Assembly (NCBI GenBank): GCA_046704425.1
Contig: JBJKRX010000018.1
Span: 20,385 to 84,384, forward strand
DNA length: 64,000 nt
From: Nitrospirota bacterium
GTDB taxonomy: Bacteria; Nitrospirota; UBA9217
Direction: 5' to 3'
Shown piece by piece: positions 4,822-52,085 of the stretch (positions are counted from its first letter, which is position 1; each line of letters opens with the position of its first letter). Below the pieces are notes generated by a model. It saw only the letters and a list, made by a program, of their open reading frames with translations. It made no database searches and was not told where the DNA came from. Position numbers and translations under genes: made by a program.

Positions 4822-4865
4822 GGCATGATTGCTCGAGGCCGGCGGCGCAGGAACGATGCTTGAGC

Positions 4866-4898: not shown

Positions 4899-4924
4899 CC
4901 TCTGCAGCGTACACCGACGAGTCT

Positions 4925-38710: not shown

Positions 38711-38775
38711 AGGCCGGGTGGAGGCATCCACCCGGCCTTTACTGCGAAAAAAAAGGAGCCGGCGAATGCCGGCTC
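38711..38775. terminator. Two adjacent hairpins forming a bidirectional terminator (GGCCGGGTGG-N6-CCACCCGGCC then A8 then GGAGCCGGC-gaat-GCCGGCTCC)
   Basis: The first hairpin followed by TTT terminates the plus-strand SPFH operon. The second hairpin followed by T8 on the minus strand terminates the dsrMKJOP-fdx transcript. Confidence 0.65.
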
Positions 38776-38801
38776 CCTATGTAATGGCGATATGCGGTTT
38801 A

Positions 38802-38987
38802 CTAAATCTCGTTGACCGTGATGCACTGCTGCGGGCAGTTCTCCACGCAGGTCAGACAGTTGATGCATTCCGACATATTCACGGGATCAGCCTTGCCGCC
38901 CTCAACCTTGAAGACCGACTGCGGGCAGACGTTCGCGCAGGTGCCGTCCCCGGCGCATTTGTTCGTGTCGACCGTTACCATGTACAT
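38802..38987 (-). CDS. Small 2x[4Fe-4S]-type ferredoxin (61 aa) at the end of the dsrMKJOP operon
   Basis: The product has CAGDGTCANVCP and CINCLTCVENCP cysteine clusters. The RBS is AAGGAGGA. Confidence 0.65.
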   Translation of the reverse strand: MYMVTVDTNKCAGDGTCANVCPQSVFKVEGGKADPVNMSECINCLTCVENCPQQCITVNEI

Positions 38988-39096
38988 TGTGCCTGAATCC
39001 TCCTTGCCTTAAGATATGTTTCCGAAACAGCCAAGCTTGTTATACTACCCGGCCGATTCGATAAAATCAAGCACGAAATAACGGGGTCCGAGACGT

Positions 39097-40269
39097 TCAA
39101 TGCTTGATCTCGATACCCGCGGTCCGCTCGCGGACTGAGATCGCGATCTTATACAGCATAGACAGCACCAAGAGACCAATGGCCCAGATGCCTATTGTAA
39201 TCATCGTCTCGGGTCCGGTCGGCCAGTAGGTATGCACGTCGCCGAAGGGGTTCGGAACAAACCCGCCGACGATCAGGCCGAAGCCCTTGTCGATCCAGAG
39301 CGAGATGAACAGCATGACACAAGTCAGGGCGAGCAGGCCTTCGTTTCTGCGAATGCGCGGAACGACCAGCATCAGAAGCGAGACGACGGCAAAGATCGTC
39401 GACACCCACATAAGCGGAACGAGCTCCGCGTGTCCGGCCATTCCTTTATAGAGATAGATAAAGCTGGCCCGGTGCTCCGGGATACCGCTGTAGAAGGCTG
39501 TAAAGAACTCGAGACCCAGGAAGAAGACGTTGGCGAACATGGCGTAACCCACGATCTTGCCCACGGCCTGGATCGGTTCCCGGCCCGGATCGAACTTCGA
39601 GACCTTCCGAACGATCAACGCCAGGATAATAAGCAGTGCCGGCCCGGCCGCGAACGCCGAGGCGAGGAACCGCGCCGCCATAATGGCACTAAGCCAGTAG
39701 TCACGCCCCGGCAGACCCGAGTAGAGGAACGCCGTGACCGTGTGGATGCTGACCGCCCAGGGGATCGAGAGGTAGATGAAGAACTTAATCCACTTCGGCG
39801 GCGGCGCCCCCTTCCGGTCGGCGCTCAGGGTGATCCAGCCGACCAAGGCGTTGATCGCCAGATAGCCGGACAGCACGAGAAAGTCCCAGAACATAACCGA
39901 GTTCGGCGTGGGATGAAGCATGATGTTCATGAACCGCATGGGCTGGCCCATATCGGCCATGATGAAGAGCATGCACATAAGCACCGCTGAGATCGCAAGG
40001 AACTCCCCAAGGATCACGATCTTGGTAAACTTCTTGAAATCGTGCAAATAATAGGGGATAACCAGCATCACGGCCGATGCGGCGACTCCGACGAGGAATG
40101 TGAACTGTCCGATGTACAGGCCCCATGACACGTCGCGGTGCATGCCGGTCATTCCCAGACCGAAGGCGAACTGCTTGAGATACCAATAGAATCCGATGCT
40201 CGCCACGACGACGAGGAAGATGATCCACGTCCAGTATTTCTTCCCGCCTTCAAATGCTTTCTCAAGCAT
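39097..40269 (-). CDS. dsrP: DsrP, NrfD/PsrC-family integral membrane quinone-interacting subunit
   Basis: The 390-aa ORF is a polytopic membrane protein of the NrfD family. It is positioned after dsrO. Confidence 0.8.
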   Translation of the reverse strand: MLEKAFEGGKKYWTWIIFLVVVASIGFYWYLKQFAFGLGMTGMHRDVSWGLYIGQFTFLVGVAASAVMLVIPYYLHDFKKFTKIVILGEFLAISAVLMCMLFIMADMGQPMRFMNIMLHPTPNSVMFWDFLVLSGYLAINALVGWITLSADRKGAPPPKWIKFFIYLSIPWAVSIHTVTAFLYSGLPGRDYWLSAIMAARFLASAFAAGPALLIILALIVRKVSKFDPGREPIQAVGKIVGYAMFANVFFLGLEFFTAFYSGIPEHRASFIYLYKGMAGHAELVPLMWVSTIFAVVSLLMLVVPRIRRNEGLLALTCVMLFISLWIDKGFGLIVGGFVPNPFGDVHTYWPTGPETMITIGIWAIGLLVLSMLYKIAISVRERTAGIEIKH

Positions 40270-41092
40270 GTTCGGTCCCTCCTATCAGGTAATAAATGGC
40301 CGGCCCGGTACCCAACTCGGCTTTACGCCTGATAGTCAGGCGGTTCGTCACGAGTTGCCTGACCTCGGACTTCGGGTCGTCGATGTCCCCGAAGAACATG
40401 GCGCCGGTCGGTGCGGCCTCCACGCAGGCAGGCATCTTGCCCATCTCAAGCCGCTCGGAGCAGAAGATGCACTTCTCCACGACGCCCTTGGTCCGCGTGG
40501 GGTATGCATAGTTGATGTACTTGGGATCGAGCGCCTTGCGCGGGTCGGTCCAGTTGAAGCTACGCGCCCCGTAGGGGCAGGCGGCCATGCAAAACCGGCA
40601 ACCGATGCAGCGGTGCTCGTCCTGCATCGTGATACCGTTGGGCAGCTTGAACGTGGCCTGGGTTGGGCAAACCCGTACACACGGAGCATGGTCACAGTGG
40701 TTGCAAAGAACGAGGAACGGCATATTCTTCAGACGCTCCTCCATGAAAGCATTCTCGGAGCCAGGAAAGGTCTTCTCATAGGGCTCTTCCCAGATCCACT
40801 TGATCTGAAATTTCAGGTCCGGCGTGCCGTCAGGGTTCCGGAAGTCGGGAACGTTGTGGGTATGATGACAGGCGTCGATGACCTTCTGCATGTCCTCGAC
40901 GCTCTTGAACTTGCTCATGTCCACGACCATGGCCCACCGCTTCGCGTGCAGGGCGTCCGGACTTTCCTCGACCTGCGGCGACGTCAGCTCCTTCTGCCAG
41001 TACGTACGGGACGCCGAGGCGACGGAGGCGCCGAATCCCAGGATGGAGGAGATCCCGGCGATCTTCAGAAACTTTCTCCTGTCCATGCTCAT
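40262..41092 (-). CDS. dsrO: DsrO, periplasmic 4x[4Fe-4S] ferredoxin-like subunit with Tat signal
   Basis: The product begins MSMDRRKFLKIAGISSILGFGASVASA, a twin-arginine signal. It contains several CxxCxxCxxxCP clusters. Confidence 0.8.
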   Translation of the reverse strand: MSMDRRKFLKIAGISSILGFGASVASASRTYWQKELTSPQVEESPDALHAKRWAMVVDMSKFKSVEDMQKVIDACHHTHNVPDFRNPDGTPDLKFQIKWIWEEPYEKTFPGSENAFMEERLKNMPFLVLCNHCDHAPCVRVCPTQATFKLPNGITMQDEHRCIGCRFCMAACPYGARSFNWTDPRKALDPKYINYAYPTRTKGVVEKCIFCSERLEMGKMPACVEAAPTGAMFFGDIDDPKSEVRQLVTNRLTIRRKAELGTGPAIYYLIGGTEHA

Positions 41093-41520
41093 GATTTGTT
41101 CCCCTCCTTTTCCTGCGGCGACAGGTGGCAGTCGAAGCAGTACGGCTTGACCGCCAGGTAATTGTGGCACTCGTCGCAGAACTCTTTTTTGTTCGAGTGG
41201 CAGTTCAGGCAGCCATTCTGCAGGCTCATGTCGAACCGATAGCCGTTCGTGGCGCTGAGATACGACCGGTTCATGTTGCGAACCACGGAGTCACGCCAGT
41301 CGTTCAGGAGCTGCATGTGCTCCGCCCGCATGTACTCCTTGGACTCCACGCAGTCTTTCTTCCCGTTATGCAGCGCCGCCCACGACTGGATCGCCGGCGT
41401 GTCCAACTTCAGGTCGGGCTTGGCGTTCACGGTCCCGATGTCGTAGTAGAACGGGAACAGCGCAGCGGCCAAAAAGACCAGAAGCCCGAGGAATATCGGT
41501 CCTTTGTTATAGATCTTCAT
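41089..41520 (-). CDS. dsrJ: DsrJ, trihaem c-type cytochrome
   Basis: The product has a signal/TM segment and three CxxCH motifs (CLNCH, CDECH, CFDCH). Confidence 0.8.
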   Translation of the reverse strand: MKIYNKGPIFLGLLVFLAAALFPFYYDIGTVNAKPDLKLDTPAIQSWAALHNGKKDCVESKEYMRAEHMQLLNDWRDSVVRNMNRSYLSATNGYRFDMSLQNGCLNCHSNKKEFCDECHNYLAVKPYCFDCHLSPQEKEGNKS

Positions 41521-43142
41521 CAGGCTTTCTCCTCCTTCTGCTGTTCTTTTGTCGGGAGGGGCTCGCCGCGCAGGTCGGTCTCCCGCGGTTTCTCGCCCTT
41601 CATGACCAGCGCGTTGCCCACCAGCTCATGCAGGCCCGCGACGTTGACGCTCGGCACCCAGTAATCCATGAGCGGCTTCAGCGTGGCGCGGTCGATGGCG
41701 CAGATGTTCGCCAGCATGTTCACGCCGTAATGCTTCTGCACGAACTGCACGGCGTTCGCGCGGGGGAACCCGCCTTTCATCCGGAGATCCATATCTTCCG
41801 AGGCGTTGAGGCCCGAGCCGCTGCCGCAGCAGAAGGTCTTCTCGCGGATCGTGTCCTCCGGCATCTCGACGAAATTGTTCACCACATGATTGAGCACGTA
41901 GCGGGGTTCCTCAAAGAAACCCATGCCGCGTGCGGTGTTGCACGAGTCGTGCCACGTGACCGTGAGATGATCGTTCCGGCTCGGGTCGAGCGTGATCTTC
42001 TTGTTCTTGATGAGGTCGGCGGTAAACTCGGCGACATGGACGATCTTGAGAGACTTGGTGTTCTCAAAGACCGTCCCGGTGATCGGCGACTTGGGGACCT
42101 CCAGGAAGTCCGCCGGCCCGTTCCAGGTGTCCGTGTACTGGGTCAGAACGCGCCACATGTGGCCGCACTCGCCGCCCAGGATCCACTTGACGCCGAGCCG
42201 TTTCGCCTCGGCGTAGATCTTCGAATTGAGCCGCTTTGCCATCTCGTTCGTCGTGAAGAACCCGAAGTTGCCGCCCTCCGAGGCGTAGGTGCTCCACGTA
42301 TAGTCCAGGCCGAGCTCCTCGAAGAGCATGAGGTAACCCATGCAGGTGTACGTCCCCGGATCGGCGAAGAGGTCGCCCGAGGGGGTCACGAAGAGGATCT
42401 CCGCGCCCTTGCGATTAAAGGACGGCTTGATCCGCTTGCCGGTGATGGTCTCGATGTCGTCCAGCATGTACTCCATGTTGCCTACGATGGTGTGCGGCTC
42501 CAGTCCCAGGTGATTGCCCTTCATGTAGCAGTTGGACACCGGTCCCGCGATCCATTCGATGTTGAGACCGAGTTCGTTCAGGAGCTCGCGTCCCATGATC
42601 GTGATCTCAGCCTGGTCGATGCCGTAGGGGCAGAACACCGAACAGCGGCGGCATTCGGTGCACTGGTAGAAGTAGTACCACCACTCCTTGAGCACGTCGA
42701 TGGTCAGGTCGCGGGCGCCTGCCATCTTGCCCAGGATCTTGCCTGCGGTCGTAAACTCTTTGCGGTAGACGGACCGGATCAGCTCGGCCCGCAGGACCGG
42801 CATGTTCTTCGGGTCTCCGGTGCCGATGAAGAAATGGCACTTGTCGGCGCAGGCGCCGCAGCGCACGCAGATGTCCATGAACAGCCGGAACGACCGGTAT
42901 TTCTTGAGCCGTTCCGCGATCCCCTTGATGAGGATCTCCTTCCAGTTCTCCGGCAGTTTCCAGTCCTCGTCAGCGGGACGCCACTCCCGCGGGTTCGGGA
43001 AGCCAACGATCTCCAGGCTCTTGGGCTTCGAGCCGTGGCAGAACATGCCTTCCTTCAGCACGGCAGGCGTGTTCATCCATCCCGTCTTGGGCAGTCGGTA
43101 ATCGACTTTCGCCAATTCCTCTGGTTTCGGTAGTTTCGCCAT
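41520..43142 (-). CDS. dsrK: DsrK, HdrD-like catalytic subunit with CCG domains and Fe-S clusters
   Basis: The 540-aa product has CVRCGACADKCH and CTECRRCSVFCP ferredoxin-like clusters. It has two CCG-type cysteine-rich domains (CGHMW..., FCCGSGSG). Confidence 0.85.
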   Translation of the reverse strand: MAKLPKPEELAKVDYRLPKTGWMNTPAVLKEGMFCHGSKPKSLEIVGFPNPREWRPADEDWKLPENWKEILIKGIAERLKKYRSFRLFMDICVRCGACADKCHFFIGTGDPKNMPVLRAELIRSVYRKEFTTAGKILGKMAGARDLTIDVLKEWWYYFYQCTECRRCSVFCPYGIDQAEITIMGRELLNELGLNIEWIAGPVSNCYMKGNHLGLEPHTIVGNMEYMLDDIETITGKRIKPSFNRKGAEILFVTPSGDLFADPGTYTCMGYLMLFEELGLDYTWSTYASEGGNFGFFTTNEMAKRLNSKIYAEAKRLGVKWILGGECGHMWRVLTQYTDTWNGPADFLEVPKSPITGTVFENTKSLKIVHVAEFTADLIKNKKITLDPSRNDHLTVTWHDSCNTARGMGFFEEPRYVLNHVVNNFVEMPEDTIREKTFCCGSGSGLNASEDMDLRMKGGFPRANAVQFVQKHYGVNMLANICAIDRATLKPLMDYWVPSVNVAGLHELVGNALVMKGEKPRETDLRGEPLPTKEQQKEEKA

Positions 43143-43144
43143 GA

Positions 43145-44128
43145 TTACTCCTTTTCTACCGGCAGACCGGCATCTTTCATCTTGGCCCGGAAATCGTTTT
43201 CATACTCTTCGTAGGTGTGCAGGTGCACCGGATAGTTCCAGGGATTGATGTGCCGTTTCCAGCGATTGTTGTTCGCCATGTTGCGCGTCGGGCTGAAGAA
43301 TACGCCCCCCGAATGCACCAGCTTGCTAAAGGGGAAATAGGCGAAGAGGGTGCAGATCAGGAAGAGGTGGATGTAAAAGAGGGGGGTGATCCCCTGCGGA
43401 ACCGTCGGATGGAAGCTGATGAGCCCCATGGCCAGGATCTTGACGTTCACGAGGTCCGTGCGGAAGAAATACCGCATGAGCACGCCCGTACAACCGATGC
43501 CGAAGATGAGGAAGAGCGGGAAATAGTCGTTGATGAGCGAGATGTAGCGCACCTGCGGCAGGCTGACCCGACGGAGGAACAGGTAGAGGATCGCGGCCAG
43601 GAAAACGACGTCGGTCATGTACAACTGCGGCACGCCGATCTGGAGGAAACCGTCCAGGTAATCGGCGCGCTGCACGAGTGCCGGAATATGCTCGGTAAAG
43701 AACCGGAGATGCCTGAAGAAGATGATGAGGAAGGTCCAGTGGAATGCCATCCCCGCCGCCCACAGCCACTTTGCCTCGCCGTACACCAGCTGGGAATCTT
43801 CATCGCGAAGCTGGGTTTTCAGGTTGCGGAAGAGCGAACGGAAGAGCAGCACTTCGAGGGCCATCCTGCCGATCACGCCGAGCAGCCCCGCGGGGCTCTC
43901 CAGTCTGCTCCGCTTGATCCAGGGGAGGGATTTCTGCTGTCCGCAGGTGGTCGGGATCCGGAACGGCACAGGCGAGCTCCCCCACCGGAGGACGCGGAGG
44001 ATCATCCCGAAGAGGAACGTCACCCCGGCGATGTAGGGGATGATCACGCCGAAGAAGAACGATCCGGCGCCCACGTAGGCGATCAGCGCCAAGACGAGGA
44101 CTACGATGAACGAGAAAAGTGCTTTCAT
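43145..44128 (-). CDS. dsrM: DsrM, NarI-like membrane dihaem cytochrome b
   Basis: The start was set at MKALFSFIVVLVLAL. The product has multiple transmembrane helices with conserved His and is about 327 aa. Confidence 0.8.
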   Translation of the reverse strand: MKALFSFIVVLVLALIAYVGAGSFFFGVIIPYIAGVTFLFGMILRVLRWGSSPVPFRIPTTCGQQKSLPWIKRSRLESPAGLLGVIGRMALEVLLFRSLFRNLKTQLRDEDSQLVYGEAKWLWAAGMAFHWTFLIIFFRHLRFFTEHIPALVQRADYLDGFLQIGVPQLYMTDVVFLAAILYLFLRRVSLPQVRYISLINDYFPLFLIFGIGCTGVLMRYFFRTDLVNVKILAMGLISFHPTVPQGITPLFYIHLFLICTLFAYFPFSKLVHSGGVFFSPTRNMANNNRWKRHINPWNYPVHLHTYEEYENDFRAKMKDAGLPVEKE

Positions 44129-44184
44129 TTCGTTACCTCTTTTCGTTATAGGTTGGCGATGAGGCACGTTATGGAAAACTGCGC

Positions 44185-44700
44185 TTAGTCGGGCCGGTCG
44201 ACGATCAGGCGCGCCTGCTGCAGGAGCCGGTAGGTCTGGTTCCGCGCCTCGTTCGCCTTCAACTCGTAGATCTTTTCGCGACACTGCATGTAGAGGTCGA
44301 AGGCGAAGAGGCCGAGATCATCGACGGCGGACTCGAAAGCCGCCAGTTCCGCAGCGATCCCGGGCCGTGCCAGGTTGTCGCTGCCGAGTTCCCGCCGGAC
44401 GACCTGCTTGAGCTGGAAGACGAAGGCGACCGCCTCGGAGGGGGGGAAGTCCTGGACCGCGCGAATCCTGACGATGCCGTCAAGGAACCGGGAGACATCG
44501 CCGGCGAGCAGACCGGCGAGCAGCCCGTCGAACAACCCCTCCATCCCCTCGGATAGGGTGAACCCGACGGGGTTCGTAAACTGCGCTTTTTTCTTTTTCA
44601 GGAAGGCGGACGTGTCTGGTTGATAGGTTTCCGTGATGGCGTCGAACCAAGCCTTGAGGATCGCGGTCTTTTTTTCCGTCAGCAGCTGTTTGAGGTCCAT
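44185..44700 (-). CDS. Hypothetical protein, possibly RsbRD N-terminal-domain-like (candidate DsrT-like)
   Basis: The 171-aa helical product begins MDLKQLLTEKKTAILKAWFDAITETY.... It lies immediately upstream of dsrM. The family assignment is from memory only. Confidence 0.4.
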   Translation of the reverse strand: MDLKQLLTEKKTAILKAWFDAITETYQPDTSAFLKKKKAQFTNPVGFTLSEGMEGLFDGLLAGLLAGDVSRFLDGIVRIRAVQDFPPSEAVAFVFQLKQVVRRELGSDNLARPGIAAELAAFESAVDDLGLFAFDLYMQCREKIYELKANEARNQTYRLLQQARLIVDRPD

Positions 44701-44765
44701 GGCCCTCTCGGGGAGGTCGGCAACACGCTACAGCCCCCGCAGCACTTCACTGCGGGGGCCGGCGG

Positions 44766-45179
44766 CTAAAAGAACAATACGTGTTGGACCGACTCCATCT
44801 CTTTTTGAATATCGGCGAAGGAGACGAAGGTGGTCTTGATCTCCGCCCCCAGTTCCTCCGCATCGGTGATCATCTGGTCTTCCTTGAGGCCGAGGCGCTC
44901 CATATCCTCTTTGCAGACCCACACCGGCATGTCGATCAGGAGGCTGTTCTTGATGTGGCTTTCCGTGCTGGTGACGCCGTACATTTTCATCGCTTGCTGG
45001 TTCTTTACCGCGTTCAGCACGCCGTCCCCGACGAACACGACGGTCGGCACCACGGAATCGCCGTCATCCATGTAGATCTCAGCGGTCTGGCTGGCGATGG
45101 CATGGGTGAGCGCCAACCGGGGGTTCTCGCTCTTGTACGGCGGCCTCTGCACGAGAAACAACAATCTGACTGCTCCCAT
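44766..45179 (-). CDS. DsrE/TusD-like sulfurtransferase family protein
   Basis: The 137-aa product contains VVFVGDGVLNAV and a conserved Cys in PVWVCKEDMERLGL, analogous to TusD Cys78. Confidence 0.55.
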   Translation of the reverse strand: MGAVRLLFLVQRPPYKSENPRLALTHAIASQTAEIYMDDGDSVVPTVVFVGDGVLNAVKNQQAMKMYGVTSTESHIKNSLLIDMPVWVCKEDMERLGLKEDQMITDAEELGAEIKTTFVSFADIQKEMESVQHVLFF

Positions 45180-45539
45180 TTACTCACCTCCTATGTGCAG
45201 CAGGCGGTCGGTCTTGACCGTCTTTGCCAGGTACCAGTCCATACTGGCCCGCTTCATACCCTCCGGAGTGTCCTCCTTATGGTAGCCGCGGGCCTCGGCG
45301 CAGGCCTCGCAGACCGTGAGTTCCATGCCCTTGCCGATCAGTTCCATCATTTTCTTTTCACAGTGCGAATAGTCCTTGAACGTTTTCTGCCCCTTCTTGG
45401 CCATCATTACCGCATTACCGGAGAGCCACATATTCACCTTGTGCCCCTTGGCCATCGCGGCCTCGGCAAGCTTGAACGAAAAATCAAGCGACATCGAGCC
45501 GACCAGCGAGGAGAAAACCCCCATCGTCAATTCAGCCAT
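45180..45539 (-). CDS. DsrE/DsrF (TusC-like) family protein
   Basis: The 119-aa product contains MELTVCEACAEARGY. It abuts the preceding gene with no gap. Confidence 0.5.
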   Translation of the reverse strand: MAELTMGVFSSLVGSMSLDFSFKLAEAAMAKGHKVNMWLSGNAVMMAKKGQKTFKDYSHCEKKMMELIGKGMELTVCEACAEARGYHKEDTPEGMKRASMDWYLAKTVKTDRLLHIGGE

Positions 45540-45654
45540 GCTGTCCTCCTTTAAGAATCTGCGAAGATGCGGGGAGATGCGCCCGGATCGTCCGCTTGGG
45601 CACTCATGCCGGAGCGCCGCCCATCCGCAGCCGTTGTTCGCCGCGAGCGATGCG

Positions 45655-45954
45655 CTACAGCCAGGCGCTCTTCTCGTAGTCGTTCATGATGAGGTCGACG
45701 ATATCGCCGTACCCCACAACCTTTACCTTCGGATTCACGCTCGCGGCGGTAAGACCGCGCGTCTCGAGGTCGTCCAACAGTGCATAGAAGGTCGCCCCGG
45801 CCTTTCCCAGCACGGGCGAATCCTTCCCGTCTTCCTTGACGACAGCATGGTAGACGCCGTTTTCTACCAGAACGATCCCCAGTTTTTCTGCGCTGATCCG
45901 CTCGAGGGTTTCTTCCGTCCTTCGCCAATCGCTTATAAAGAGAGCCAACTTCAT
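45655..45954 (-). CDS. DsrH/TusB-like protein
   Basis: The 99-aa product is MKLALFISDWRR...GIVLVENGVYHAVV, which has TusB-like layout. Confidence 0.5.
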   Translation of the reverse strand: MKLALFISDWRRTEETLERISAEKLGIVLVENGVYHAVVKEDGKDSPVLGKAGATFYALLDDLETRGLTAASVNPKVKVVGYGDIVDLIMNDYEKSAWL

Positions 45955-45982
45955 CGATTCACCTCCCCTGTGCAGCAGTGGG

Positions 45983-46022
45983 ATAAAAAAACAGGGGATA
46001 ATGTGTTCTTCCTATTATCCCC
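45983..46022 (-). terminator. Rho-independent terminator after dsrC
   Basis: On the minus strand the hairpin is GGGGATAAT-aggaagaacac-ATTATCCCC, followed by TGTTTTTTTA. Confidence 0.6.
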
Positions 46023-46177
46023 TTCGTTGTTGATCGAAGCTTCGCCGGTGTATTAGGAGCGACATGCCGCAACGCCCGTTCACTGCGCGCACCCCGTCCG
46101 ATAACCGGAGGGATTACACCGGCAGCGCCGTGCCCCTGCCCGCGGCAACGCCGAACGGCTGAAAGCCGGTCTCGCGC

Positions 46178-46513
46178 CTACACGCAGCCGGTCGGCTTCG
46201 GCAGACCGGCGATCTTGCAGGCCTGTTTCGCCGGGCCGCCCGGGTACAGCTCGTACAGGTACTTCGTGTTGCCCTTTTCCGGTCCGAGCTTTTTGCCGAT
46301 CTCTTTCACCAGGATCTTGATCATCGGCGCGATCTGGTACTGTGCATAGTAATCGCGCAGGAAATTCACCACTTCCCAGTGCTGGTCGCTCATCTGGATG
46401 CCCTCGACCTCTGCGAAGTAATTTGCTACATCCATGCTCCAATCGTCGAGGTTTGCCAAGAACCCATCCTCATCCACTTCCAGCGTCTTGCCTTTTACCG
46501 AAATCGTTCCCAT
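46178..46513 (-). CDS. dsrC: DsrC (TusE/DsrC family) with conserved C-terminal CxxxxxxxxxxCV arm
   Basis: The product ends ...YPGGPAKQACKIAGLPKPTGCV*. The start was set at MGTISVKGKTLEVDEDGFL. Confidence 0.85.
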   Translation of the reverse strand: MGTISVKGKTLEVDEDGFLANLDDWSMDVANYFAEVEGIQMSDQHWEVVNFLRDYYAQYQIAPMIKILVKEIGKKLGPEKGNTKYLYELYPGGPAKQACKIAGLPKPTGCV

Positions 46514-46612
46514 TGCTGATCCCCTTTCTATCGTTGACAATATGGTCGGGCGCCTTTCTTCGGCAATCCCTCGCTTCGTTCCTTCTGCCTGTTGCGTCGG
46601 CGGTCCGGTCCG

Positions 46613-46978
46613 CTACGCTGCCTGCTGTTTCACCCGCACTATGTACAACCGCCCAAATCCGTCCCGGAACCCTTTGCTGATACCCGGTGAGCGGTGAGTC
46701 CGCCAATCATAGCTCAAGATCGCATCTTCGTAATCGTCGCCGGGCATAAGGTCCGACGGGCTCTTCCGCAGTCGTTCCGCGGCGATGCCCAGCGCCTGCA
46801 CCATCGCCTCGCCGGCATTCTTCCCGGTCTGATCGACGATGTAGATCGCCCCGCACCCTTTGCAGAAACCACCGAGCACCCGCTCGGCGTCACCTGCGTC
46901 TATGGATTCCGGCCGGTCGAGCGCCGCACCGCAGAACGGGCAGGTCGGGTCGATGCTTCCTCGCGGTCGGGATCGCAT
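46613..46978 (-). CDS. Hypothetical Zn-ribbon protein (121 aa) between dsrN and dsrC
   Basis: The product has CPFCG...CKGCG motifs. Its start is 7 nt after the dsrN stop, which suggests translational coupling. Its composition is non-artefactual (IYIVDQTGKNAGEAMVQALGIAAERL). Confidence 0.4.
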   Translation of the reverse strand: MRSRPRGSIDPTCPFCGAALDRPESIDAGDAERVLGGFCKGCGAIYIVDQTGKNAGEAMVQALGIAAERLRKSPSDLMPGDDYEDAILSYDWRTHRSPGISKGFRDGFGRLYIVRVKQQAA

Positions 46979-46985
46979 ATGCTGG

Positions 46986-48389
46986 TCACCTCGTTCTCTT
47001 CGCGTCCCGTACGCCTGCTTGCCGTTCTCTGGCCATCCGCACCATGGCAGGAGCCCATTGCGGCGTCGCCAGTGCGTGAATATGGGTGTACGCCGCTACA
47101 ACGTTGCGGGTGACGAGTCCGTCGCGTTTGCCGTCGATCCCCGAACCCCGCCGCACATCATACGCCATCATCGGGTGTCCGTCAACCCGATCAAGCCGCG
47201 AGTAATGAAACTCGTGCCCCCGAACCTCGGTCCCCGCATCCAGGAATCTTCCGGACGTCCCGGCCTCGAGCACCGCATAGCCGTGCGCCTGGGGCCTGCT
47301 TTCCAGGATAAAATCCGCCGGAAACACGCCGGTCATGGCATAGCTCCTACCGCTGACCGTGAGGCTGCGTCCGAGATAGAGCAGACCGCCGCATTCCGCG
47401 TAGATCGGCAGCCCGTCGTCCGCCGCTTCCCTGACCGATCGGCAGAAATCGCCGTTTGCCGCGAGTTCCGCGGCCTGGGTTTCCGGAAACCCGCCGCCGA
47501 TATACAGCGCCTCGAGATCCGCCGGAAGCGCCCGATCCTGCAGGGCATTGATCTCGCGAAGGATTGCACCATGCCGTTCGAGCGCTTCCAGGTTATCGGG
47601 ATAGTAGAACTGAAACGCCTTGTCCCGGACAACCCCGACGGTGACGGTCGGACCGCCCAGGCGGGAACGTGGCGCCCCGTCCCGCTCCGTCGCAAACGTC
47701 TCTGCCGTTCCGGCCGCGCTCCAAAGCGCGTCGAGATCGCAATGCCGCTCCACCAGCGCCCGCGCCGCGTCGATGGCACCGATTGCTTCGGGATGCTCAT
47801 GGAACGGCGTGAGCCCCATATGCCGTTCCGGAAAACCGCCCCGCTGGCGGGGGATCGCACCGAGCACCGGCAGGCCGCTGCTTTTCGCTACCGCCTTCCG
47901 GATGACGTCCTCGTGGCGCGCCGAGGCAAGGTTGTTCAGTATGACGCCGACGATCCTGCAGGACGGATCGTACCGCAGACAGCCGAGCACCACGGCCGCC
48001 ACGGTGCTGGTCGCCTTGGTGCAGTCGACGATCAGCGCCGTCGGGGTCCTGAGCAGGGCTGCCAGCCGGGCCGTACTGTACGTGCCGGATTCGTCGACGC
48101 CGTCGTAGAGCCCCCGGTTCCCTTCGATAACAGCCGCATCCGCATCGGCCGCGTGAAGCAGAAAGGAATCAACGATCCGTTCCTCCGCCATCATGAACGG
48201 ATCGAGATTGTAGCAGGGCCGGTCCGCTGCGACGCCGAGCCATCCGGCATCAATGAAGTCCGGCCCCTTCTTGAACACTGCAACGCTGCGTCCCTGCCGC
48301 CGCCAGGCGGCGACGATGCCGAGGGCGATGGTTGTTTTCCCGATCCCCCCCCGCGTCGCCGCGATGACGAGCCTCGGCAAATCCCGCAT
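46986..48389 (-). CDS. dsrN: DsrN, cobyrinic acid a,c-diamide synthase homologue (sirohaem amidase)
   Basis: The product has a CbiA/CobB N-terminal P-loop (IAATRGGIGKTTIALG) and a C-terminal glutamine amidotransferase-like domain. It sits immediately after dsrD. Confidence 0.75.
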   Translation of the reverse strand: MRDLPRLVIAATRGGIGKTTIALGIVAAWRRQGRSVAVFKKGPDFIDAGWLGVAADRPCYNLDPFMMAEERIVDSFLLHAADADAAVIEGNRGLYDGVDESGTYSTARLAALLRTPTALIVDCTKATSTVAAVVLGCLRYDPSCRIVGVILNNLASARHEDVIRKAVAKSSGLPVLGAIPRQRGGFPERHMGLTPFHEHPEAIGAIDAARALVERHCDLDALWSAAGTAETFATERDGAPRSRLGGPTVTVGVVRDKAFQFYYPDNLEALERHGAILREINALQDRALPADLEALYIGGGFPETQAAELAANGDFCRSVREAADDGLPIYAECGGLLYLGRSLTVSGRSYAMTGVFPADFILESRPQAHGYAVLEAGTSGRFLDAGTEVRGHEFHYSRLDRVDGHPMMAYDVRRGSGIDGKRDGLVTRNVVAAYTHIHALATPQWAPAMVRMARERQAGVRDAKRTR

Positions 48390-48625
48390 TACGACTGCGG
48401 ATTGGCAGAGCCTTCCACATGGGGAATTTCGATGAAGCTGCCGCCGAAGTACGAATAGACCAGCTTGCCGCCGTCAACCAGTTCGCGCAGCGCTTCTTTG
48501 AACTCCGCTTCGGTCGCGCCTTCCGCGACCATGGCCTTCTTCAGGTCGCCGGACTTCATCTTCTTCTTGCCCATGTTCTTTTCTACGAGGTCATAGATCT
48601 TTTTCTGCAATTCCTGGGCGTCCAT
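48389..48625 (-). CDS. dsrD: DsrD, small winged-helix protein of reductive-type dsr operons
   Basis: The 78-aa product is MDAQELQKKIYDLVEKNMGKKKMKSGDLKKAM...GKLVYSYFGGSFIEIP. It lies immediately downstream of dsrB. Confidence 0.75.
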   Translation of the reverse strand: MDAQELQKKIYDLVEKNMGKKKMKSGDLKKAMVAEGATEAEFKEALRELVDGGKLVYSYFGGSFIEIPHVEGSANPQS

Positions 48626-48647
48626 GTAATGTCCCCCTGGTCAGGTT

Positions 48648-48695
48648 TGAGTGAAAAGGAAAACCGGCCTCCCGAACGATCGTACGGGAGGCCGG
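48648..48695 (-). terminator. Strong intercistronic hairpin between dsrB and dsrD (CCGGCCTCCCG-N9-CGGGAGGCCGG then TTTTCCTTTT)
   Basis: It has an 11-bp GC stem followed by a T-rich tract on the minus strand. It is a candidate partial terminator or mRNA-processing/stability element. Confidence 0.5.
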
Positions 48696-48708
48696 ACCCA
48701 GTCGTGTA

Positions 48709-49782
48709 TTACTCCCACTTGAAGGTGGGGGTCATCCGGAACGTGTCGCGGGCAAAGGTGAAGTCATCGATATGCTGATACGTGAACGGCAGGCCCGTGA
48801 GATTGAAGAACCGCTCCCAGCCGATCCGTTCGATCCATTCGCCGTAGCGCTCGTGCTTCCGCGCATCGCTCGCATAGACCTCCACCAGGTGCTTCACGGC
48901 CTTCACCGTTTCCGGCCACCGCGGGGGGTTGTTCGGCAGGAACGGGATGGCGAGCTTGGACATGCGCGCCGGGCCGCGGGCGTTCGACACCTTCCCGCCC
49001 ACATAGATCGAGATACCGTCGCCGGTCGCATCGGCGAGCGGAAGCGAGGGGCACATGGTGTAGCAGTTACCGCAGTACATGCAGCGCTCTTCCTTGATCT
49101 TCACGGACTTGATCGCCGGGTTCGGGCTGATGGCGCCCGTGGGGCACGAAGCGATGGTCGTGGGGATCTCGCACTGGTTGCCCAGGGTCGCATCGTTCAC
49201 CTTCGGCGGTTTGCGGTGAATGCCGAGGATGGCGATGTCGGAGCAGTGGACCGCGCCGCACATGTTCAGGCAGCACGCGAGGGCGATGCGGACGCGCGCC
49301 GGCAGGGTCTTGGTGGTGAAATACTCGTGCAGTTCGTCCATGACCGCCTTCACCACGCCCGAGGCGTCGGTTGCCGGGGTGTGGCAGTGGATCCAGCCCT
49401 GGGTATGCACGACGTTGCTGATGCCGTAGCCGATGCCGCCGGAGAGGTGGCCGCGCTTCTTGAGCTCGGCCTGCAGCGGTTCGACCTGCCCCTTGTCCGG
49501 GAAGAACTCGACGTTGTGCCGGGTCGTCCAGCGGAGATGGCCGCCGGAGAACTTCTCGGCGAGATCGCACATCTCGCGGATGTAGTCGGTGCTCACGAGC
49601 CGCGGGGTCGCCACGCGGACGGTGTACATCTCGTCGCCGGTCTCGGAGACGTGCTTCATCGCACCCTTATTGAGATACTCATGGTACTTCCACTTCCCGT
49701 AGTTCTTCGCGATCACCGGGGGCAGGAATTTTTTATAGTCAGGTGCGCCAATATCCGTTATTCTCTTCGGTTTGTCAGCCAT
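48709..49782 (-). CDS. dsrB: Dissimilatory sulfite reductase beta subunit
   Basis: The 357-aa product has sirohaem/[4Fe-4S] cysteine motifs ([26 protein letters not shown]) and a ferredoxin-like insert ([12 protein letters not shown]). Confidence 0.9.
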
Positions 49783-49828
49783 TATCGGTATTCCTCCTTA
49801 AAGAAAATGGTCGTTGTCGCGCAGGACC

Positions 49829-51007
49829 TTACTTCACGTCCGCCTGATCCCAGAACACGTAGGGGTTCGTCCGCGGAGCCTTCACCATCTGCGGAACCGG
49901 CTTCAGCCCCGTTGCCTCAAGCATGGACTTCATGCCCATACGGTCGACCAACTCGCCGATACGCTCGCGGTTCTTGCCGTGGTCGTCCCACCATTCCCAG
50001 AGCTTGCGAATCAGGTCCTTCAGGTTATCGTAGGGCTCCTCAAGCTTGATGAAGGGGATGAGGACCCAGCTCATGAGCGCGCCGGTCACGATCGGGGCCT
50101 TGCCGCCGAGGAGGATCGTAGCGCCCTGATCCTTGCCGGGGCGCAGGGCCTTCGGCATCTGATTGATGCAGTGCATGCAGCGGGTGCAGTCCTTGTCGTT
50201 GACCTTGAGGGTGCCGCCGTCGTAGCTCATGCACTTCGTCGGGCACATGTTGATGATCTCTTCCTGGATGTTCATCTTGGAAGCGTAGTTCTTCACCTCT
50301 GCCTGGTCGATCCGGATGCTGTCCCGCCAGGTGCCGATGATGGACATGTCGGCGCGAGCGATGGAGGCGGTGCAGTCGTTGGCGCATCCGGAAACCTTGA
50401 TCTTGAACTTGTAGGGGAAGGCGGGGCGATGGAGTTCGTCCTGGAACTCATGGGTCATGGCGTGGCAGATGGACATGGTGTCGATGGTCGCGAACTCGCA
50501 CCGCGCCTTGCCGACGCAAGAGCTCGGGGTGCGGAGGCAGGACCCGGAACCGCCGAGGTCCCAGCCCTTCGCGGTGATTTCAGCGAAGATCGGCTCCAGT
50601 TTGTCGGTCTGCGTGCCGAGCCAGATCATGTCGCCCGTCGAACCGTGCATGTTCGTCATGCCGCTGCCGTACTTGTCCCAGATGTCGCAGAGCTCCTTGA
50701 GCGCCTGGGAGGTGTAGAAGAAACCGGAAGGCTGGTTGATACGGACGGTGTGGAAGTGGGCCACGCCGGGGAATTCTTCGGGGAGGTCGCAGTACCGGCC
50801 GATGACGCCGCCACCGTACCCGAGGACGCCGACGATGCCGCCGTGCTTCCAGTGGGTGACTTTATCCTTGTACGAGCGCTCCAGGATGCCGAGCAGGTCT
50901 TTTGCCGTATTGCTCTTGACGGCGGCCTTTTTGATCTCCTTGACAAAACTCGGCCACGCGCCTTTTTCCAGTTCATCAAGCATCGGGGTCTTACCATCTG
51001 TGCTCAT
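49829..51007 (-). CDS. dsrA: Dissimilatory sulfite reductase alpha subunit
   Basis: The 392-aa product begins MSTDGKTPMLDELEKGAWPSFVKEIKK and contains CxxxxxC...CANDC motifs. The RBS is GAAGGAGGA. Confidence 0.9.
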   Translation of the reverse strand: MSTDGKTPMLDELEKGAWPSFVKEIKKAAVKSNTAKDLLGILERSYKDKVTHWKHGGIVGVLGYGGGVIGRYCDLPEEFPGVAHFHTVRINQPSGFFYTSQALKELCDIWDKYGSGMTNMHGSTGDMIWLGTQTDKLEPIFAEITAKGWDLGGSGSCLRTPSSCVGKARCEFATIDTMSICHAMTHEFQDELHRPAFPYKFKIKVSGCANDCTASIARADMSIIGTWRDSIRIDQAEVKNYASKMNIQEEIINMCPTKCMSYDGGTLKVNDKDCTRCMHCINQMPKALRPGKDQGATILLGGKAPIVTGALMSWVLIPFIKLEEPYDNLKDLIRKLWEWWDDHGKNRERIGELVDRMGMKSMLEATGLKPVPQMVKAPRTNPYVFWDQADVK

Positions 51008-51662
51008 GAGAAAATCCTCCTTCGTAGAATTAACTTAATTCTGCACCAGGGTGGAAATGAAACGAGTACGTCGTGGTTCACCGAAGCAGCACTTGACGCT
51101 GCGGGGGCATCCGGCTGCGCCCGCGACGGCGCGAATTCGGATGCATTCAGGCTGGAGCAACAGTCCCCCTTTCCGAAAAAGGTTATCGTAAAATTGCTGA
51201 AGTGAGGCGGGAATAGGGTCCGATGATGCAGAAGGCACGAACCATTCTACTCTACGACCGTAAGACAACAGATTGTATGGGCACACCCCCTTTTAGTCAA
51301 ATAAAAAAAACTAATTATCCTATAATGTCCAATAATTAAATAGTTTAGCAATCGCAAAAAAACATGCAAATGAATACAGGGGGTTATGACTCCTTGTCTT
51401 CGCCGCTGAAGTGCTGCTTTGGCGAGGAATGAATCCCGCAGAATGCCCATAGCGACGGAAGTGCCGAGAGTCTTGTATAATCATAATATTGGATGATATG
51501 ATTGCCGTTTTTTTGCTGCAACCGCAAAAGGTATTGCGCTTGCTGCAGACCACGATGCCTTCCGAAGAGCCGCTTGAGAATGATCGATGCCCATGACAGG
51601 GATGCAGGATTCGCCCCTGCCCGCAACAGGAAAAACATCCTTACCGCTTAGGAGGAAAACCG
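51008..51662. promoter_or_regulatory. 655-bp divergent intergenic region between dsrA and the osmC-like gene; strongly AT-rich core (about 51290-51370) in a 65% GC genome
   Basis: It contains many candidate -10/-35 hexamers, for example TTGCTA...TATTTAAT on the minus strand. It implies a long dsrA leader. The track ORFs here were rejected on composition. Confidence 0.4.
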
Positions 51663-52085
51663 ATGATGATCGAGGCCAACGTGACGTTGTTAGAGAATAT
51701 GCACTTTTCCGCGACTGCATCTTCGGGCCATACATTGCACCTGGATGCCGATCCTGAGGCCGGCGGAACCGAACAGGGCTTCCGGCCCATGGAACTGCTG
51801 CTCGTGGGGTTCGGCGGATGTTCGGGTATGGACGTTTTGTCCCTCCTCCGGAAAAAACGACAAGCCGTTACCGGTCTCGAGATCGTCGTGAAAGGGGAGA
51901 AGGCGGAGGACTTCCCCAAGGTCTATAAGGCGATCCATATTGCCTATCTCATCAAGGGAAAAGGGATAACCAAAGAGGCCGTGGAACGGTCCATCGCATT
52001 GTCTCTGGACAAGTACTGCTCCGTGGGCGCGACCCTGGCAAAGGCAGCGACGATCACGCACAGCTATCGCATCGTCGAGGCATAG
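51663..52085 (+). CDS. OsmC/Ohr-family peroxiredoxin-like protein
   Basis: The 140-aa product contains MELLLVGFGGCSGMDVLSLL and DKYCSVGATL, the two conserved Cys motifs. The RBS is TAGGAGGAAAA. Confidence 0.75.
   Translation: MMIEANVTLLENMHFSATASSGHTLHLDADPEAGGTEQGFRPMELLLVGFGGCSGMDVLSLLRKKRQAVTGLEIVVKGEKAEDFPKVYKAIHIAYLIKGKGITKEAVERSIALSLDKYCSVGATLAKAATITHSYRIVEA

Follow-up and report, generated by a model that had tools for sequence, protein, structure and literature searches.

Does a set of small DsrH-, DsrE- and DsrF-like proteins encoded within a dissimilatory sulfite reductase (dsr) cluster of reductive type deliver sulfur to DsrC, and for which metabolism? The question arose from a stretch of Nitrospirota DNA of 64,000 nucleotides (the window), in which an earlier note, made from the sequence alone, had described a single-strand dsr gene set of about 12.5 kb combining dsrD with DsrE/F/H-like genes. 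All the genes that it named were found at their places by profile matches and ORF reading (Table 1). The locus is the standard dsr cluster of a widespread uncultured Nitrospirota lineage, which is related, among others, to Nitrospirae bacterium GWC2_57_13 and to isolate UBA9217. It is real, coherent, and largely already explained, since its divergent three-protein sulfur-carrier module has recently described counterparts in sulfate reducers.

Gene content and order of the cluster

The cluster runs on the minus strand in the order dsrA, dsrB, DsrD-like gene, dsrN, Zn-ribbon ORF, dsrC, hairpin with T-run, DsrH-, DsrE-, and DsrF-like genes, dsrT, dsrMKJOP, and ferredoxin. The promoter-like site upstream of dsrA is proposed tentatively because consensus sites were no more numerous than in shuffled sequence.

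Table 1. Features of the dsr cluster in the window (bit scores are followed by the model cut-off)
Feature	Size and properties	Position	Strand	Evidence
Complete dsr cluster	~12.5 kb, single-strand	38753-51300	-	uncultured Nitrospirota lineage
Promoter-like site upstream of dsrA	TTGACT-17-TACAAT	51272..51300	-	consensus scan, 10/12 matches
dsrA, dissimilatory sulfite reductase alpha	392 aa	49829..51007	-	TIGR02064, 577 bits vs 393, E 2.4e-173
dsrB, dissimilatory sulfite reductase beta	357 aa	48709..49782	-	TIGR02066, 486 vs 342, E 4e-146
DsrD-like winged-helix protein	78 aa, divergent	48389..48625	-	gene position and winged-helix model only
dsrN, siroheme/cobyrinic-acid a,c-diamide synthase homologue (CobB-type)	467 aa	46986..48389	-	NF002204, TIGR00379; Pfam GATase_3 and CbiA
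Zn-ribbon ORF, conserved	121 aa	46613..46978	-	CPFC...C-x2-C cysteines invariant
dsrC	111 aa, both C-terminal cysteines (Cys99, Cys110)	46178..46513	-	PF04358, E 6e-47; TIGR03342
Hairpin GGGGATAAT/ATTATCCCC between dsrC and dsrH	9-bp stem and T7	45985..46022	-	sequence and folding
DsrH/TusB-like	99 aa, without cysteine	45655..45954	-	PF04077, 43 bits vs 24.4, E 4.7e-11
DsrE/TusD-like	119 aa, presumed active-site Cys77, motif C77-E-A-C80	45180..45539	-	PF02635, 47.7 bits vs 22.7
DsrF/TusC-like	137 aa, conserved Cys89 (VCKEDMERLG)	44766..45179	-	PF02635, 38.5 bits vs 22.7, E 1.5e-9
dsrT, RsbRD_N domain	171 aa	44185..44700	-	PF14361, E 1.8e-22
dsrM, NarI-like membrane cytochrome b		43145..44128	-	PF02665, E 3e-16
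dsrK, Fe-S/CCG-domain subunit		41520..43142	-	Fer4_8, Fer4_17, and CCG domains
dsrJ, triheme cytochrome c		41089..41520	-	three CxxCH in translation: CLNCH, CDECH, CFDCH
dsrO, Tat-signal ferredoxin-like subunit		40262..41092	-	Fer4_11, E 7e-19; twin-arginine RRKFLK
dsrP, NrfD-family membrane subunit		39097..40269	-	PF03916, E 3.8e-36
Ferredoxin, small 2x[4Fe-4S]-type, last gene of cluster	61 aa	38802..38987	-	Cys motifs in sequence
Terminator (intrinsic), cluster end	stem of 11 bp with 8 GC pairs, then T-run	38753..38778	-	

DsrA matched DsrA chains in PDB with E values of 1e-160 to 1e-164 and was 75–90% identical to its counterparts in relatives; for DsrB, identity was 88–93% to most relatives and 78% to one. 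Since DsrA and DsrB were 85% and 91% identical, respectively, to those of GWC2_57_13, a lineage whose DsrAB was placed basally within the Nitrospirae supercluster (PMC5812927), DsrAB is inferred to be of the reductive bacterial type. The dsrD gene, taken by the earlier note as a reductive marker, could be kept only as a divergent DsrD-like gene. It directly follows dsrB in all relatives, and its AlphaFold (AF2) model is a confident winged helix (pLDDT 86), for which Foldseek returned folds of the Z-alpha and winged-helix kinds, the DsrD structures (1WQ2/1UCR) among them at TM 0.61–0.71; the match to PF08679, however, was below threshold (E 0.022, 15.5 bits vs. a cut-off of 24.2), and the ORF is labelled "hypothetical" in every source. 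The Zn-ribbon ORF had no family match in profile searches; every close relative, and the distant loci L053 and L054 too, has it between dsrN and dsrC.

The gene assigned to dsrT lies in the interval from dsrC/HEF to dsrM, which is the position of dsrT in Nitrospirae clusters (PMC5812927). Comparison with relatives 329–334 aa long placed the start of dsrM at the ATG of MKALFSF. DsrK was 77–92% identical to its relatives, dsrJ is placed between dsrK and dsrO in relatives too, the dsrO start overlaps the dsrJ stop (ATGA), and the terminal ferredoxin gene keeps its position in most relatives. Among the scanned ORFs of the window, no dsrL, as the earlier note had observed, and no tusA, yedE, sat, apr, or qmo was found; sqr and sox genes were also absent from the window. 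The other scanned ORFs were housekeeping genes.

The layout resembles the reductive dsr operon of Thermodesulfovibrio yellowstonii and Ca. Sulfobium mesophilum, in which dsrA-B-D-N ... C-T-M-K-J-O-P share a strand, a small conserved ORF separates dsrN from dsrC, and DsrAB is of the Nitrospirae supercluster (PMC5812927). In contrast to these organisms, genes H-E-F are inserted here between dsrC and dsrT, usually with the ferredoxin gene as well, and a conserved hairpin precedes dsrH.

The earlier note regarded this arrangement as unusual, a view which we do not share for three reasons. The same order is standard in approximately 50 species-level Nitrospirota genomes, in which the genes are already annotated. 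The premise that DsrEFH-like genes are a hallmark of sulfur oxidizers is outdated, given that co-occurrence of dsrD with dsrEFH has been known since 2018 (PMC6018805, PMC11406059) and that a divergent DsrEFH "type II" is widespread alongside reductive DsrAB, also in Nitrospirota (Plum-Jensen et al. 2026, ISME J, PMC13293266). Finally, clustering at a single locus, which had been set against Desulfovibrio, is reported to be common outside that genus (PMC6018805, legend of Fig. 5; PMC5812927).

The DsrH-, DsrE-, and DsrF-like proteins and the adjacent DsrC

Profile comparison reversed two of the labels previously given to the three small proteins: the 119-aa protein, which carries the active-site cysteine, scored highest with TusD/DsrE among the Tus/Dsr models, and the 137-aa protein with TusC/DsrF (TIGR03010, 32.9 vs. 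a cut-off of 94). Assignment to the DsrE/F/H families stood at the level of Pfam (PF02635 and PF04077 above cut-offs), but all three proteins fell below the TIGRFAM TusBCD/DsrEFH cut-offs, the DsrH-like one closely (TIGR03011, 47.0 vs. 49.2). The start codon of the dsrF-like gene immediately follows the dsrE-like stop. We conclude that the three genes most likely encode a sulfurtransferase complex of the DsrEFH/TusBCD fold.

Cys77 of the DsrE-like protein is aligned with Cys78 of Allochromatium vinosum DsrE (type I, PDB 2HY5) and was invariant in 51/51 sequences. In A. vinosum, DsrE-Cys78 binds sulfur and donates it to DsrC-Cys111 (PMC3397948). A DsrC is encoded next door here too; it scored below the TusE equivalog cut-off (129 vs. 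191), has Cys99 and Cys110 both invariant (48/48 sequences), and was 59% identical to A. vinosum DsrC and 48–50% identical to DsrC of sulfate/sulfite reducers. The earlier note's suggestion of a relay that supplies DsrC with sulfur appears right.

The module nevertheless departs from type I of A. vinosum and other sulfur oxidizers. The DsrE identity is only ~18–21%, the gene order is H-E-F instead of E-F-H, and the associated genes are those of reductive-type DsrAB, a DsrD-like protein, and DsrT, with no dsrL. The best PDB match of the 99-aa protein is A. vinosum DsrH (E 1.9e-5), but Leu17 is aligned with its Cys20, and no conserved cysteine was present in the DsrH-like subunit across 53 sequences. 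A. vinosum requires DsrH Cys20 in vivo (PMC3397948), so the absence of this residue here counts against an oxidative, type II relay. The DsrF-like Cys89 was retained in 51/52 sequences.

An additional cysteine, Cys80, forms with Cys77 a CxxC pair which is invariant in the DsrE-like proteins. Many YchN-like proteins have this pair too, and type I DsrE/TusD lacks it. Among single chains, the 119-aa protein matches E. coli YchN (PDB 1JX7) best in both sequence and structure, and the two share C-x-x-C-x3-R-G. H-E-F might be a redox or accessory factor of the YchN/DsrE family using this pair, for example, for thiol-disulfide exchange with the DsrC trisulfide/disulfide or with DsrK, rather than a persulfide carrier; a thioredoxin gene immediately after dsrK in locus L055 is in line with this. 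We hold it to be improbable: YchN is a one-gene homo-oligomer, whereas the present module comprises three different paralogous subunits with genomic links to dsrC, tusA, or dsrMK, in the architecture of heterotrimeric sulfurtransferases; linkage to tusA in relatives points to persulfide trafficking, and the first cysteine of the pair is exactly aligned with the proven DsrE/TusD persulfide site.

The folds and the chemical logic are also those of E. coli TusBCD-TusE (PDB 2D1P), in which TusD Cys78 passes a persulfide to TusE. Homologues in relatives are annotated as "DsrE family protein" or, by JGI, as "tRNA 2-thiouridine synthesizing protein D", and matches to the TusB, TusC, and TusD models, though weak, exist. 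That the module is a TusBCD homologue acting with a TusE-like protein in tRNA 2-thiouridine (mnm5s2U) synthesis, and present in a dsr cluster by chance, is disfavoured and very unlikely: equivalog scores are far below cut-offs (TusD 19.7 vs. 92, TusC 25.8 vs. 79, TusB 36.7 vs. 104), the neighbour is a true two-cysteine DsrC in a dissimilatory sulfur context, association with dsr genes is seen independently in three configurations, and neither mnmA nor another tRNA-modification gene is adjacent.

Conservation in relatives and probable affiliation with DsrEFH type II

In the ~50 genomes of identical gene order, the module lies inside the operon, and the DsrE-like protein is 85–94% identical across the lineage. 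This matches DsrB and DsrC (DsrN, 54–71%; DsrT, 37–74%) and is counted as evidence of selection. Linkage with Dsr genes persists in two further configurations: in L053 and L054, H-E-F-tusA is convergent with and abuts dsrN..C-T-MKJOP-fd; in L055 and L056, H-E-F is directly upstream of dsrM-dsrK, and L055 is archaeal-looking. In the more distant Nitrospirota loci L051–L054, tusA follows the module.

By published description, the module probably belongs to the DsrEFH type II group, formerly a YTD-cluster dsrE-like gene with two hypothetical neighbours. Type II accompanies reductive dsrAB, has Nitrospirota as its second main phylum, is syntenic with tusA, and includes archaeal copies beside dsrMK; it has <30% identity to type I, and its conserved DsrE cysteine (Cys67) takes the role of DsrE-Cys78 (PMC13293266). 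Our assignment rests on the agreement with these traits: three small co-located DsrE/F/H-fold proteins of low identity to type I, one DsrE cysteine that is conserved where type I has its active site, reductive dsrAB in a main host phylum, tusA beside the module in relatives, and the archaeal-looking copy beside dsrMK. The module differs from type II as described in its location inside a dsr operon, in the dsrC-dsrT interval without tusA or yeeE nearby, and in the order H-E-F, which is not that of the YTD-cluster listing. Compared to the cable-bacterial type II trimer, the summed mass of H, E, and F is 39.5 kDa vs. 33 kDa, the cysteine is Cys77 vs. Cys67, and the module is detectable with Pfam models, whereas the cable-bacterial proteins were missed by sequence tools.

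Proposed direction of sulfur flow

On balance, we lean toward a type II-like relay that loads DsrC so that the reductive-type Dsr toolkit oxidizes or disproportionates sulfur; the bidirectional or disproportionating pathway suggested in the earlier note remains the best functional hypothesis. Sulfane sulfur would be delivered as a persulfide to Cys77 of the DsrE-like protein, in relatives from a TusA encoded beside the module, and then be passed to Cys110, the penultimate cysteine of DsrC. Loaded DsrC would be processed by DsrMKJOP and reductive-type DsrAB, and zero-valent sulfur would be converted to sulfite, either in sulfur oxidation or in the oxidative half of disproportionation. If the module does load DsrC, reductive-type Dsr machinery would be able to oxidize or disproportionate sulfur; oxidative activity of reductive-type DsrAB is without demonstration at the enzyme level (PMC13293266).

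Several observations weigh against this oxidative or disproportionating relay. As to the donor, the window contained neither tusA nor yedE, and in the 50 close relatives neither gene was found within 10 kb of the module. The locus is without dsrL, which was present in all dsrD+dsrE genomes of PMC11406059. The module is co-oriented with the DsrD-like gene and dsrT, both associated with reduction, and in related Nitrospirae expression of Dsr proteins was observed under sulfate amendment/sulfate-reducing conditions (PMC5812927). All but the first of these points also suit a relay to DsrC in the reductive direction, in which S(0) from polysulfide, S0, or thiosulfate would be loaded on DsrC and reduced to sulfide by DsrMKJOP, or persulfide from sulfite reduction would be handled, the organism being simply a sulfate/sulfite/sulfur reducer. 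The module is co-directional with dsrMKJOP and reductive-type DsrAB as well, the window has no dsrL, sqr, or sox, and of the 46 type II carriers in culture, 35 reduce sulfate/sulfite (14 also disproportionate sulfur) and the other 11 are known only as sulfur disproportionators. Against this direction, transfer in vitro went only from DsrEFH to DsrC for both types I and II (PMC3397948, PMC13293266), and in the species examined it feeds an oxidation pathway; canonical sulfate reducers thrive without the module; and in Thermodesulfovibrio and Ca. Sulfobium, judging by the locus tags given in PMC5812927, dsrC is followed by dsrT directly or with one gene between. We regard the reductive direction as doubtful, while less so than a redox factor.

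Expression of the module may be set apart from that of dsrABC. The terminator that the earlier note had placed after dsrC at about 45983-46022 corresponds to the hairpin with T7 in Table 1, and the 45-nt stretch upstream of its T-run has a fold energy of -14.7 kcal/mol. The hairpin (GGGGATAGTT/AATTATCCCC) and T-run are kept in 48/49 lineage members, 28–43 nt before the dsrH ATG. This element, a candidate intrinsic terminator or attenuator, probably reduces transcription of HEF-T-MKJOP below that of dsrABC.

Composition of the dsr cluster

The minus strand of the window carries an uninterrupted, co-directional gene series running from ~51.3 kb down to 38.75 kb (see table). Among the window ORFs that were scanned, none was identified as sat, apr, qmo, dsrL, tusA, or yedE.

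Features of the dsr cluster and its surroundings, with positions in the window and supporting matches
Feature	Position	Strand	Evidence or remark
LarB-like, LarC-like, and PP-loop (LarE-like) genes	216-4914		on either side of NAD synthase
dsrA		minus	TIGR02064, 577 bits
dsrB		minus	TIGR02066, 486 bits
DsrD-like ORF, 78 aa	48389-48625	minus	
dsrN		minus	CobB-type a,c-diamide synthase
Zn-ribbon ORF, 121 aa	46613-46978	minus	cysteine-rich; without family
dsrC	46178-46513	minus	PF04358, E 6e-47
dsrC-dsrH interval	45955-46177		
Hairpin	45985-46022	minus	
DsrH-family ORF, 99 aa	45655-45954	minus	family scan
DsrE-family ORF, 119 aa	45180-45539	minus	family scan
DsrE-family ORF, 137 aa	44766-45179	minus	family scan
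dsrT		minus	RsbRD_N ORF at dsrT position
dsrM		minus	NarI-like
dsrK		minus	Fe-S and CCG domains
dsrJ		minus	triheme CxxCH protein
dsrO		minus	Tat signal, Fer4_11
dsrP		minus	NrfD
Ferredoxin, 61 aa, then strong terminator		minus	cluster end
OsmC-like gene	51663-52085		divergent from dsrA
ORF with UvrC domains, 1225 aa	56596-60273	minus	

DsrA and DsrB were 85% and 91% identical, respectively, to those of Nitrospirae bacterium GWC2_57_13, from which we infer that DsrAB of the window is of the reductive bacterial type and belongs to the Nitrospirae supercluster. DsrAB of the GWC2-57-13 lineage was placed in a basal position of this supercluster as reductive bacterial-type, near uncultured lineage 10 (Zecchin et al., PMC5812927), and dsrAB of the class UBA9217 was also typed as reductive (PMC11033732). 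Upstream of dsrA, a non-coding stretch of ~650 nt extends to the OsmC-like gene, and the G+C content falls to 0.555 at positions 50001-52000 vs. ~0.63 elsewhere.

Both C-terminal cysteines of DsrC, Cys99 and Cys110, were invariant in 48 of 48 sequences, and the protein scored 164 with TIGR03342 (cut-off 53.5) and 129 with the TusE equivalog PRK11508 (cut-off 191). Judged by its cysteines as well as by its family scores, it is DsrC as opposed to TusE. It was 59% identical to DsrC of A. vinosum (E 1e-45), 50% to that of Desulfomicrobium, and 48% to that of Archaeoglobus. An assignment to an 'oxidative-type' DsrC by likeness to A. vinosum was rejected, since 59% vs. 48–50% for sulfate/sulfite reducers is too weak a difference. 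The seven-residue segment GPEKGNT, absent from DsrC of the Desulfovibrio/Desulfomicrobium type, accounts for part of the identity gap.

The 78-aa ORF had been read as dsrD in the earlier note, which its fold (as modeled) and its position after dsrB support and its sequence does not (PF08679, 15.5 bits vs. 24.2; E 0.022). The protein is named hypothetical in all databases, and neither single-sequence nor profile searches against PDB found DsrD. Structure prediction, made with database homologues and not with the locus sequence, gave an AlphaFold model of a three-helix winged helix (pLDDT 86). Its Foldseek neighbors were Z-alpha domains and other winged helices; DsrD structures 1WQ2 and 1UCR, with TM scores of 0.61–0.71, ranked 22nd and 43rd in a long list of winged-helix matches. 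DsrD of D. vulgaris (1WQ2, 1UCR) is described as a Z-alpha-like winged helix by Mizuno et al. (2003), as cited in PMC8477390. As expected of DsrD, a winged helix of ~75 aa encoded directly after dsrB, the modeled protein has a winged-helix fold and its gene a conserved position directly downstream of dsrB. Because of this model and place, we treat the 78-aa protein as divergent and DsrD-like rather than as DsrD proper. Many Nitrospirota with reductive dsrAB were reported to 'lack dsrD' (PMC11033732), probably because the protein in the DsrD position misses PF08679 and is annotated as 'hypothetical'.

The 121-aa Zn-ribbon ORF between dsrN and dsrC had no Pfam or NCBIfam match. Its cysteines (CPFC...C-x2-C), Y90, R93, and H95 are invariant, and it is kept in all close relatives, with 35–37% identical counterparts in distant Nitrospirota (L054:17736-18101, L053:17959-18360). 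It is apparently a conserved gene of the dsr cluster that has no name yet.

The H-E-F module and its distribution

The 99-, 119-, and 137-aa ORFs between dsrC and dsrT form a module with the gene order H-E-F, since the 119-aa protein is DsrE/TusD-like and the 137-aa protein TusC/DsrF-like. The earlier note had exchanged the latter two labels. The best curated matches of the 119-aa protein were TusD/DsrE models, and its segment VC77EAC80AEARG aligned to VC78VAAAQRRG of A. vinosum DsrE, which puts Cys77 at the position of Cys78; the top score of the 137-aa protein was with TusC/DsrF, and a sequence search of PDB with it gave no meaningful match. In the TIGRFAM/Pfam check proposed in the earlier note, the proteins matched the DsrH and DsrE families; all three remained below the TIGRFAM equivalog cut-offs (TIGR03010-03012), TusB/DsrH with 47.0 vs. 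49.2, TusD/DsrE with 24.7 vs. 89.25, and TusC/DsrF with 32.9 vs. 94.15.

Cys77 of the DsrE-like protein was invariant in 51 of 51 sequences and Cys80 likewise (51–53 sequences compared), and Cys89 of the DsrF-like protein (VCKEDMERLG) was found in 51 of 52. At the place of A. vinosum DsrH Cys20, which is essential in vivo (PMC3397948), the DsrH-like protein has Leu17, and no conserved cysteine was found across 53 DsrH-like sequences. By tblastn, the DsrE-like protein was one of the most conserved in the cluster, with identities across the lineage of 85–94%, compared to mostly 88–93% for DsrB, 86–96% for DsrC, 54–71% for DsrN, and 37–74% for DsrT, which argues for strong purifying selection. 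Readings as pseudogenes or as chance ORFs were rejected because of scores, conservation, and context.

Scanning of one genome per GTDB species for the DsrE-like protein yielded 50 loci with a best-segment identity of 83–94%. Almost all carried the label Nitrospirota or Nitrospirae and were MAGs sampled from groundwater, soil, and the subsurface; they included Nitrospirae bacterium GWC2_57_13, GWC2_57_9, and isolate UBA9217. According to tblastn with all 16 window proteins, the order A-B-D-N-Zn-C-(fd)-H-E-F-T-M-K-J-O-P-(fd) was retained in the same orientation wherever the contig was long enough. The arrangement, suspected to be unusual in the earlier note, is therefore common to these relatives, and the locus is a real and coherent, normal dsr cluster of a known but uncultured lineage. 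As in the window, tusA was absent from the 50 close loci over a distance of 10 kb around the module.

Other Nitrospirota, including Ca. Magnetoovum chiemensis, had homologues with 65–71% identity, in which H-E-F was kept and followed by tusA. In two of these distant loci (L051, L052), H-E-F-tusA did not adjoin dsr genes; in two others (L053, L054), it converged on and abutted the end of dsrN-x-Zn-dsrC-dsrT-dsrMKJOP-fd. No YeeE was seen near the tusA-linked modules of these four loci. HMMER with a profile of the DsrE-like family retrieved a compact family, of which six representatives reached E<=1e-30 and 166 reached E<=1e-3; the next sub-family (E 4e-27) had identities of 38% for E, 39% for F, and 49% for H. 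In this sub-family, found in an archaeal-looking contig (L055:7689-11577 and L056; JGI 3300027323; Logan SRR1587974), H-E-F lay directly upstream of dsrM-dsrK-thioredoxin. The archaeal-looking contig also has, on the opposite strand, another DsrE-family gene (100 aa) and an ORF of 98 aa. With the in-operon, the abutting tusA-linked, and the dsrMK-upstream loci, there are three independent configurations in which the triad is linked to parts of the Dsr system.

The internal terminator-like structure of the earlier note, at ~45983-46022, proved to be real: a hairpin whose stem is formed by GGGGATAAT/ATTATCCCC, with a run of seven T after it. The same element, a GGGGATAGTT/AATTATCCCC stem with a T-run, was conserved in sequence in 48 of 49 lineage members (among L001-L050), 28–43 nt before the ATG of dsrH, both with and without a ferredoxin gene between dsrC and dsrH; in L017, a hairpin with a T-run was not found. 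Upstream of the separately transcribed H-E-F-tusA units (L051-L054), there was no such hairpin, and sigma-70-like hexamers were found instead. The sequence after the T-run leaves space for little beyond a ribosome-binding site and has no room for a promoter, so HEF-T-MKJOP is probably transcribed by read-through. The hairpin is thus likely an attenuator within one long operon, which would give high levels of DsrABC and lower ones of the relay and membrane complex. In most relatives, dsrC is followed, ahead of the hairpin, by a ferredoxin gene of 61 aa (e.g., L003:9028-9586). It is missing in the window, L005, L010, L018, L029, and L048, and the dsrC-dsrH interval of the window holds 186 nt of apparently non-coding sequence where relatives carry this ferredoxin.

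Relation to known DsrEFH systems and possible function

With the A. vinosum-type DsrEFH (type I), the module shares the sulfur-binding cysteine of DsrE. It differs in the low curated scores, the missing DsrH Cys20, and gene context, which together rule out type I membership. Type I goes with oxidative-type dsrAB and dsrL, without dsrD, whereas the window cluster has a DsrD-like gene, dsrT, and DsrAB of the inferred reductive type. A role in TusBCD-TusE tRNA thiolation was likewise rejected because of the scores (PRK13510, 36.7 vs. 104; PRK00207, 19.7 vs. 92; PRK00211, 25.8 vs. 79; PRK11508, 129 vs. 191), the two-cysteine DsrC, conservation, and context.

The 'oxidative-type' genes here are probably of a class just published from sulfate-reducer-like genomes, the divergent type II DsrEFH (Plum-Jensen et al. 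2026, PMC13293266). Type II genes were counted in 985 genomes, the majority of which have reductive dsrAB, and their main phyla are Desulfobacterota and Nitrospirota; subtype 1, the closest to type I, is 57% Nitrospirota (PMC13293266). In bacteria, they adjoin tusA and yeeE, and in archaea dsrMK or qmoAB; to count as a member, a set has to exceed 80 bits with each of three type II HMMs (HMSS2 extension) and to fall within the type II tree (PMC13293266). The window module resembles type II in having three syntenic DsrE/F/H-fold genes with <30% identity to type I and a conserved functional DsrE cysteine, and its relatives do so in the archaeal-looking H-E-F-dsrMK and tusA-linked Nitrospirota loci. 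The bacterial synteny with tusA and yeeE/yedE is not matched in the window or the 50 close loci, and the cable-bacterial prototype differs in summed size (33 kDa vs. 39.5 kDa here), in the position of the cysteine, in the order of the genes, and in whether Pfam models detect it. Compared by the published description, H-E-F is quite probably a type II member, because the host, the partner genes in relatives, the identity range, and the conserved cysteine fit it. Reports of dsrD together with dsrEFH date back to 2018 (PMC6018805), and the combination was noted for Nitrospirota in a study in which all mixed genomes had dsrL (PMC11406059).

For type II, sulfur transfer TusA<->DsrE(Cys67)->DsrC was demonstrated in vitro (PMC13293266). 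Most likely, H, E, and F would assemble as a DsrEFH-like complex, in which a TusA- or rhodanese-type protein encoded elsewhere would donate a persulfide to Cys77 of the E subunit; from there, the sulfur would go to Cys110 of DsrC, and DsrMKJOP and DsrAB would then act on the loaded DsrC. As in the organisms studied so far, such a route would feed the oxidation of zero-valent sulfur to sulfite. A serious rival is the use of the same relay in the reductive direction. As a lesser rival, H-E-F might have a CxxC-based redox role: the HMMER output also included many YchN-like CxxC proteins, beside the compact family to which the DsrE-like protein belongs. Returning to the sulfur relay, a tentative and rather doubtful proposal is that in this Nitrospirota lineage of aquifers and soils, H-E-F has been built into the dsr operon without tusA, yeeE, or dsrL behind a lineage-conserved attenuator, and that this single transcription unit, with reductive-type DsrAB, a DsrD-like protein, and DsrT, could be bidirectional. 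Organisms presently classed as sulfate reducers would in that case be in fact sulfur oxidizers or disproportionators, and it would be the hairpin that determines how much DsrABC is made relative to the relay and membrane complex.

In large surveys with standard DsrEFH models, reductive Nitrospirota came out as DsrEFH-negative and were taken for sulfate reducers (PMC10591310), because all three subunits fall just or far under the TIGRFAM cut-offs. A KEGG-based study of Thermodesulfovibrionia reported "dsrFH, but no dsrE" (PMC11033732), since the subunits are under the TIGRFAM/PRK equivalog cut-offs. The divergent module is conserved as well as DsrB/DsrC, and its physical linkage to dsr genes takes three different forms. 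If the type II hypothesis (PMC13293266) is true, sulfur oxidation or disproportionation could be within reach of a Nitrospirota lineage that is widespread in groundwater and soil, and marker-gene predictions of sulfur cycling would need revision. What still makes the locus of value is that the module lies within the operon, that tusA and dsrL are absent, that the DsrD-like protein is divergent, and that the hairpin is conserved; the in-operon dsrC, H, E, and F are a compact gene set for biochemical tests.

Other genes of the window

The window has a G+C content of ~63%, and Rfam and tRNA scans of it gave no matches. Outside the dsr cluster, it encodes housekeeping functions (LarB/C/E-like proteins, NAD synthase, ribonucleotide reductase, SecA, DinB, Lhr, Dxs, IspA, IspD, CysE, UvrC, and others). 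The LarB-like (AIR carboxylase), LarC-like (Ni insertion), and LarE-like genes are a probable nickel-pincer cofactor biosynthesis set. In the 1225-aa ORF, UvrC domains were found only from residue 624 on; the first 620 residues had no family match and may represent an over-extended start in high-GC sequence or a separate in-frame gene.
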